A stretch of 43,702 nucleotides of DNA from assembly GCA_032161105.1 (NCBI GenBank), contig JAVHTD010000025.1. One strand, written 5' to 3'. Both the position numbers and the translations under genes were made by a program. Numbering within the stretch: the first letter of the stretch is position 1; every line of letters starts with the position of its first letter. The stretch comes from Candidatus Thermosaccharophagus tengchongensis (GTDB taxonomy: Bacteria > Armatimonadota > Fervidibacteria > Fervidibacterales > Thermosaccharophagaceae). A model generated the notes under the pieces. That model ran no database searches. It saw only the letters and a list, made by a program, of their open reading frames with translations, and was not told the origin of the DNA. Positions 30,796 through 32,367 of this stretch are shown here, one piece after another.

Positions 30796-32367
30796 CCCTT
30801 GGAGAGTTTGACGGTGGCTCAGGGCGAACGCTAGCGGCGTGGATAAGGCATGCAAGTCGAGCGGAGGGGAGTAGGTCAAGTTAACGCTTGACCGACACCC
30901 TCAGCGGCGAACGGGTGAGTAACGCGTGCCTAACCTACCCCGCAGACCGGAATAACCCCGGGAAACTGGGGCTAATGCCGGATACGCTCCCTTTAGCGCA
31001 TGCTATTGGGAGGAAACGGTTGGGTGAGGAGCCCTTCCGCTGCGGGATGGGGGCGCGTCCCATCAGCTAGTTGGTGGGGTAACGGCCCACCAAGGCGACG
31101 ACGGGTAGCGGGCCTGAGAGGGTGGCCCGCCACACCGGGACTGAGACACGGCCCGGACCCCTACGGGGGGCAGCAGTCGAGGATCTTGGGCAATGGGCGA
31201 AAGCCTGACCCAGTGACGCCGCGTGGGGGACGAAGCCCTGCGGGGTGTAAACCCCTGTGGCAGGGGACGAATGCCCAAGCTTAAAGGCTTGGGTTTGACG
31301 GTACCCTGTTAGAAAGCCCCGGCTAACTGCGTGCCAGCAGCCGCGGTAATACGCAGGGGGCGAGCGTTGCCCGGATTGACTGGGCTTAAAGGGTCCGTAG
31401 GCGGTTGCCTAAGTCCTATGTGAAAGCCTCGGGCTCAACCCGAGGAGGACATAGGATACTGGGCAACTTGAGGGCGGAAGAGGCCAGCGGAACGGCGGGT
31501 GTAGCGGTGAAATGCGTAGATATCCGCCGGAACACCAGTGGCGAAGGCGGCTGGCTGGGACGCCCCTGACGCTGAGGGACGAAACCCTGGGGAGCGAACC
31601 GGATTAGATACCCGGGTAGTCCAGGGTGTAAACGTTGCGCGCTAGGTGTGGGGAGTTTAAAACTCCCTGTGCCGTAGGGCAACCATTAAGCGCGCCGCCT
31701 GGGGAGTACGGCCGCAAGGCTGAAACCCAAACCGATTGACGGGGGCCCGCACAAGCGGTGGAGCATGCGGCTTAATTCGATGCTACCCGAAGAACCTTAC
31801 CAGGGCTTGACATGCGGGTGGTAGCGACCCGAAAGGGAAGCGACCCACTTTATGTGGGAGCCCGCACAGGTGGTGCATGGCTGTCGTCAGCTCGTGCCGT
31901 GAGGTGTCCGGTTAAGTCCGGTAACGAGCGCAACCCCCGCCCTTAGTTGCCAGCGGGTAATGCCGGGCACTCTAAGGGGACTGCCCGCGCAAGCGGGAGG
32001 AAGGTGGGGATGACGTCAAGTCCTCATGCCCCTGAAGCCCTGGGCTGCACGCATGCTACAATGCCCGCTACAATGGGCTGCGAACCCGCGAGGGGGAGCG
32101 AATCCCAAAAAAGCGGGCTAAGTTCGGATCGCAGGCTGCAACTCGCCTGCGTGAAGCCGGAATCGCTAGTAACCGCCGGTCAGCTATACGGCGGTGAATA
32201 CGTTCCCGGGCCTTGTACACACCGCCCGTCACGCCATGGAAGTCGGTTGCACCCGAAGCCGGTGGGCTAACCCGAAAGGGAGGCAGCCGTCGAAGGTGTG
32301 ACCGGCGACTGGGGCGAAGTCGTAACAAGGTAGCCGTAGCGGAAGCTGCGGCTGGATCACCTCCTTT
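30796..32367 (+). rRNA. rrs: 16S rRNA
   Basis: GTGCCAGCAGCCGCGGTAA, ATTAGATACCC, AAGTCGTAACAAGG, anti-SD GATCACCTCCTTT; flanking processing stem 30689-30719 / 32416-32445. Confidence 0.99.

Follow-up and report, generated by a model that had tools for sequence, protein, structure and literature searches.

Compensated replacement of all three base pairs of 16S rRNA helix 2 in a Fervidibacteria lineage

We found that all three base pairs of helix 2, the 16S rRNA's central pseudoknot, are replaced in a member of the Fervidibacteria, with pairing kept. In the alignment to E. coli 16S, positions 17–19 read CGG and positions 916–918 read CCG, giving the Watson-Crick pairs C17-G918, G18-C917 and G19-C916, each of which differs from both UCC/GGA and UCA/UGA; the adjacent U20 (30815) and A915 (31731) are as in E. 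coli. Coordinates and E. coli mapping agree with the pairing proposed in an earlier sequence-only reading of this DNA. The helix states are nested on the 16S tree and recur in other lineages. This is a real and rare combination of individually recurrent swaps, and largely ordinary compensatory evolution. We consider it probable that the 16S rRNA is functional and its helix 2 an ordinary one, constrained in its Watson-Crick shape rather than in the identity of its bases, and changed stepwise by near-neutral compensation. The features discussed are collected in Table 1; the window is the whole stretch of DNA that was analysed (43,702 nt).

Table 1. Features of the rRNA operon and of its 16S gene (window coordinates; substitutions in E. 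coli numbering)
Feature	Position	Strand	Basis or partner
16S rRNA gene, only full-length copy in G000, 62.6% GC	30796..32367	+	Rfam, genome search
Helix 1 (9–13 with 21–25), same as E. coli	30804..30820	+	sequence
Helix 2, 5′ strand C17 G18 G19	30812..30814	+	sequence, E. coli alignment
Helix 2, 3′ strand C916 C917 G918	31732..31734	+	sequence, E. coli alignment
U340C and A349G, order-wide; cause of 338-site mismatches	31159..31168	+	alignment
G769C and C810G, family-level; sites invariant in outgroup set (49 representatives)	31585..31626	+	alignment
A864C, family-level; site invariant in outgroup set (49 representatives)	31680	+	alignment
U911C, helix 27, opposite G886 (31702)	31727	+	E. coli alignment
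U952C with A1229G, family-level	31768..32051	+	alignment
Leader arm of predicted leader-trailer processing stem	30689..30719	+	partner 32416-32445
Spacer tRNA-Ile(GAT) and tRNA-Ala(TGC)	32490..32753	+	
23S rRNA gene; no 5S after it	32913..36122	+	

The host and its 16S gene

The host genome (G000; 2.74 Mb, 97% complete) was placed by 16S comparison in the Fervidibacteria (Armatimonadota) as Thermosaccharophagaceae-like. The nearest named 16S is that of Ca. Thermosaccharophagus yellowstonensis (L130; 92.9% identity over 632 nt), and C911 is common to both; named Fervidibacter/Caldisaccharidevorator-type loci are at 83.8–86.9%. The order is laid out as two families and three genera, in agreement with PMC11535203. 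The host is a thermophile; it encodes reverse gyrase, and the runs that best match it are hot-spring metagenomes. Short dispersed repeats were seen at L252:4700-5260; G003 holds some 100 matches to them, and two Fervidibacteraceae-type bins 50–80.

The host carries a single full-length 16S gene, which matches Rfam RF00177 over its full length (1508 bits). Metagenome contig L214 has a 16S 100% identical to it, both helix strands included; across 3035 nt, contig and host differ by 13 mismatches and 3 gap positions (99.5% identity). Another contig, G016:C377, has a 16S that is 97.3% identical and a helix that is also CGG/CCG. With the same helix in these two contigs, the change is not a sequencing error, which the sequence-only reading had judged very unlikely. 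G016:C377 is itself probably misbinned, because the uS5 and the own 16S fragments of its bin belong to the other family, with UGG; its final 45 nt match, without a difference, those of G003:C145, from a congener of G000.

Contigs from all three DNA runs (three studies) span 30812–30814, with 5–7 differences over 464–689 nt around the 5′ strand and none at 30812–30814 among the differences listed. At 31734 the run contigs have A (2471/2471 in X4, 109/109 in X7 and 5657/5660 in X6). Because this all-other-letter pattern recurs at other conserved sites (for example 31518 in X4, 32034 in X6, and 32120 in X4, X6 and X7), we attribute the A to abundant CCA-type relatives; the three DNA runs neither confirm nor clearly refute G918. 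The RNA run X15 does not cover 30785–30938 and is silent on the 5′ strand; runs of low word share were left out. An assembly artefact, a pseudogene or a foreign 16S would fit the A of these contigs, and chimeric or misbinned 16S contigs do exist in the set (G016:C377 in its other-family bin, and G495:C12, with UGG and GGA near a contig end). Such an origin is nevertheless extremely unlikely, given the sole full-length copy with its full-length Rfam match, the intact layout of promoters, 16S, tRNAs and 23S, the recurrence of both strands in L214 and in the 97% sister gene, and six coordinated changes nested within the phylogeny of the order. The G495:C12 locus (L334, 17800-19138), whose 5′ end is of Kryptonium type, is probably a chimeric assembly.

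The 5S rRNA gene lies apart from the 16S-23S operon, on another contig just before tRNA-Asn (G000:C17:7524-7640). A leader motif (window 30733-30746) is kept in 4/4 family 16S leaders and can pair with 16S 21–30 or with the trailer, and an 11-bp hairpin (window 30769-30794) directly precedes the 16S 5′ end. Just past the 23S, two ORFs (740 and 387 aa) occupy a lower-GC stretch (45–50%; window 36300-39721); neither has an NCBIfam match.

Other changes in the host 16S are shared by its family or order, and the family-level ones (U911C, A864C, G769C/C810G and U952C/A1229G) fall on near-invariant sites. C911 occurs in 4/4 family-level 16S genes examined, and U in the 49/49 outgroup representatives with a base there. 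Positions 769/810, 952/1229 and, in helix 14, 340/349 are presumably base pairs, which would make the changes at each of them compensated. Three Fervidibacteraceae-type 16S genes (L010, L012, L013) have C912U, at what we take to be a streptomycin-resistance site. A universal cluster lies between 885 and 911 among SSU nucleotides (PMC9014874, on Noller's 140 invariants), and U911C may break one universal helix-27 nucleotide.

Another host contig (G000:C7:77075-77416, minus strand; L251) carries a decayed second copy of the rRNA promoter and leader together with the first ~200 nt of 16S; none was found in G001–G003. Compared with the active copy in 536 columns, it has 66% identity, with changes biased to G>A (23/95) and C>T (9/59), and reads TAA at 17–19. 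As a record of an ancestral U17 it was rejected, since most informative 16S sites place it with the CGG clade; that affiliation and the biased changes make decay the best reading of TAA.

Helix 2 states in the phylum and beyond

For the phylum comparison, 61 genomes were searched and 30 16S loci taken. All 14 phylum loci that lie outside the order and have both strands carry UCC/GGA or UCA/UGA. Among the 14 loci of the order, 12 carry UGG/CCA and two CGG/CCG. A wider phylum search of 401 genomes gave 197 matches in 168 genomes, and among the 150 matches listed the 3′ strand is GGA or TGA in 134, CCA in 12, CCG in two and GCA in two. A 58-row 16S tree joins the two CGG genes as sisters (94/100); the order clade that contains them is supported at 100/100. 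The helix thus went from UCC/GGA in the phylum to UGG/CCA in the order and then to CGG/CCG, and the nested states and the tree together resolve the triple change into a flip of two pairs at the order's base and a single transition pair that came later. What the sequence-only reading called a fully compensated triple substitution stands in that all three pairs are changed and still paired, but it comprises two inherited steps, not one event. The UGC/GCA of G286 was tried as the intermediate of the order and rejected, because the 16S tree does not place it with the order. The loci compared include no U17-G918 intermediate.

Two scans were made beyond the phylum, with many near-identical rows; their counts are of the matches listed and give no frequency. 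When GTDB was scanned for loci in which 917 is a pyrimidine, at least 118 were found, and all 118 listed have A918. Among the matches listed, 68 had a 5′ call and 62 of these were fully paired: UGC/GCA in 31 (Micrarchaeota and unnamed archaea), UAC/GUA in 21 (Planctomycetota, Chitinophagales, Gammaproteobacteria, Poribacteria and unnamed bins), UGG/CCA in seven (five Fervidibacteria-type, one Kryptonia, one Micrarchaeota), UGA/UCA in two and UGU/ACA in one. Of the others listed, 19-916 is a C-A mismatch in five and the 5′ call is spurious in one. Flips at 18-917 are also found in Kryptonia, Micrarchaeota, Patescibacteria and others. C19-A916 as a natural mismatch (UGC/ACA) occurs in archaeal loci (L043, L044, L046, L064 and L094, four of them titled Micrarchaeota).

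A metagenome scan for non-A at 918 found at least 100 loci; 68 of the matches listed had a 5′ call, and 65 of these had C17-G918 in a fully paired helix, as CCC/GGG (45), CUC/GAG (8), CCU/AGG (7), CUA/UAG (3), CUG/CAG (1) or CGG/CCG (1). The CUG/CAG locus (L213) is another full triple change. CGG/CCG is confined, among the matches listed, to the sub-branch of the host. The metagenome C17-G918 lineages fall on six separate branches of the 58-row tree, whose backbone is poorly supported. Both scans selected loci by the 3′ strand alone, and the 5′ strand was fully complementary in 62/68 and 65/68, which is covariation across lineages among the matches listed. False or organelle-like 5′ calls (L086, L158, L192) count as misses in these figures and were dropped from the leader, E. 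coli-alignment and energy/GC analyses, as was L163 from the alignment. The sequence-only reading counted helix 2 among the most conserved rRNA elements; a nearly inviolable sequence is not supported, and all three of its pairs swap repeatedly across lineages.

CCA was found in 4 of 82 matches from the class of Kryptonium. Transfer of 16S between Kryptonium and Fervidibacteria was considered and, short patches aside, rejected: of 71 informative sites, 53 go with Kryptonium's own class and 16, scattered and 10 of them towards GC, with Fervidibacteria. Going by these sites, convergence seems likelier than transfer for the UGG/CCA of Kryptonium.

Shape, heat and partners

Helix 2 links the 16S 5′ end to the central/3′ junction (PMC8201178), and E. 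coli mutagenesis, as summarised in PMC3900107 and PMC5329695, indicates that it needs complementarity, not primary sequence. Stepwise compensation under a constraint on shape would have begun in the ancestor of the Fervidibacteria, with C18-G917 and C19-G916 flipping to G-C (UGG/CCA). One sub-branch of the Thermosaccharophagus-like genus would then have changed U17-A918 to C17-G918, most plausibly by two transitions through a U17-G918 wobble. The swaps are likely to have been nearly neutral, helix 2 presumably forms in the host ribosome, and a single rRNA operon would let swaps fix without the homogenising of copies. UCC, UGG and CGG make a natural three-step series that confirms the constraint on shape and offers a ready panel for transplant tests; no ribosome model is overturned. 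A literature search, in which subscription papers were thinly covered, found no description of helix-2 rewriting in Fervidibacteria. Against this explanation, UGG/CCA in hot-spring Kryptonium and the 65% GC 16S in one C17-G918 lineage hint at some heat selection, and the family changes at 911, 864 and 769/810 leave possible room for local tertiary co-adaptation.

Selection of the all-GC helix, and perhaps of the earlier flip, to stabilise the pseudoknot at high temperature is unlikely. The host is a thermophile with a 62.6% GC 16S. By nearest-neighbour calculation, the four pairs of the helix have energies at 37/80°C of −3.3/+0.14 kcal/mol with CGG, −2.5/+0.51 with UGG, −2.7/+0.43 with UCC and −4.1/−0.5 with CCC, so that at 37°C CGGU/ACCG exceeds the helices with UCC or UGG in stability by 0.6–0.8 kcal/mol. 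At 80°C, however, its advantage is 0.3–0.4 kcal/mol; the last step, UGG to CGG, adds 0.8 kcal/mol of stability at 37°C and 0.4 kcal/mol at 80°C, and the order-wide flip is no stabler than UCC/GGA (−2.5 vs −2.7). The branch leading to the CGG 16S shows 10 AT>GC against 14 GC>AT changes, a net loss of GC. Many UGG relatives have a higher 16S GC (up to 65.5%) than the CGG genes (62–63%), and the highest-GC 16S (64–66%, Fervidibacteraceae-type) keep U17-A918. Among the matches listed, many near-identical, 41 of the 45 CCC/GGG loci have 16S of 45–52% GC. Thus neither of the two signs of thermal adaptation looked for, a GC gain on the branch and absence from low-GC rRNAs, was found, and the earlier proposal that the all-GC pseudoknot may be a thermal adaptation is weakly supported, with a gain of 0.4–0.8 kcal/mol on a branch without GC rise. 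A thermal role is kept in view because the other four CCC/GGG loci have 65% GC 16S and UGG/CCA is shared with Kryptonium, probably by convergence.

We hold it very unlikely that the helix is tuned to a lineage-specific partner, be it uS5/uS12, the 864/911 rRNA, a leader guide, the 3′ tail or RimP-free assembly. The family has changes at A864, at U911 and in the N-terminus of uS12, and the whole order a uS5 G-to-S change at residue 109, but these are common to the UGG congeners and do not track C17-G918. G000 and its UGG congeners have the same uS5 loop 2 and uS12 core, and the co-changes in uS5/uS12 that the sequence-only reading had suggested looking for include none that separates the CGG genome from these congeners. 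RimP aids central-pseudoknot formation in E. coli (PMC4371863). It (PF02576) was not found above the cut-off in G000 or in the 19 order members searched, and was found in 10/10 bacterial controls and, above the cut-off, in 25 of 201 Armatimonadota-group genomes, of some families only; it is, however, absent also from many canonical-helix families and present in 4/4 CCA Kryptonium genomes, and RimP loss was rejected as the cause of the helix change for want of correlation. In a precursor model G18–G21 could pair with the anti-Shine-Dalgarno tail, but UCC pairs with the 3′ tail equally well or better, and a 5′-3′ end lock gained through G18G19 was rejected on the same ground (UCC with 1529–1533, by 0.6–1.4 kcal/mol on average). 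The leader test was null: no leader guide covarying with 17–19 was found in 88 dereplicated loci, the native triplet ranked 23/64 in G000, and the excess over shuffles was −0.12 ± 1.9 kcal/mol in 75 non-canonical loci. A writer of ac4C for the new CCG (PF13718) was not found in G000 (97% complete).

We give only a slight chance to a heat-tuned maturation switch, in which selection would have favoured G18-G19 separately in Fervidibacteria and in Kryptonium, hot-spring lineages that occur together, and C17-G918 would then have hardened the helix in a clade whose 30S assembly does without RimP. If so, the flip would shift the alternative partner of 15–21 in the precursor from 1529–1533 to the anti-Shine-Dalgarno 1533–1538.

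Primer sites and related 16S rRNAs

Primer mismatches were counted by eye. The 27F site has the three mismatches expected from the sequence-only reading and the 338F site the expected two, which are U340C and A349G and are found in the whole order. We take 515F and 806R, compared by eye, to match the host 16S. At 926R up to three had been expected; the 907–926 site has four differences from E. coli (911, 916, 917 and 918), and 926wF, in the form that PMC4737851 gives, yields the same count. The expected under-detection is already in print, in statements at class or phylum level. Fervidibacteria are described as often missed through primer mismatches (PMC11535203); figures given for organisms missed by primers are 92% for Armatimonadetes and 100% for Kryptonia (PMC9039060), and Kryptonia are called a primer blind spot (PMC4737851). 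The UGG state may already stand in the aligned primer sites in the supplements of these three papers. At 27F and 907/926, the helix change names the cause of the blind spot already known for Fervidibacteria. From the primer-site sequences, full-length (27F) and 515F-926R surveys would be expected to under-count the host genus most, and V4 (515F-806R) surveys would not.

The host helix has the positions of the central pseudoknot helix 2 of PMC8201178, PMC5329695 and PMC3900107 and, like it, consists of three Watson-Crick pairs, with helix 1 intact and U20 and A915 kept; natural variation is discussed in the accessible text of these papers at 19-916 only, whereas the host differs at all three pairs. 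Other Fervidibacteria (Fervidibacter, Caldisaccharidevorator, Thermosaccharophagus; PMC11535203) share G18-C917, G19-C916 and the 340/349 change with the host, to which C17-G918 is added in 2/14 order loci. Ca. Kryptonium (PMC4737851) has the same UGG/CCA double flip, also lives in hot springs and is also a primer blind spot, but the flip is probably of independent origin, and U17-A918 and RimP are kept. The metagenome C17-G918 lineages (CCC/GGG, CCU/AGG, CUC/GAG, CUA/UAG, CUG/CAG) have the compensated 17-918 change of the host, CCC/GGG with an equally all-GC helix and CUG/CAG with an equally full triple change; unlike the host, none has G18-C917, and their 16S are mostly low-GC.
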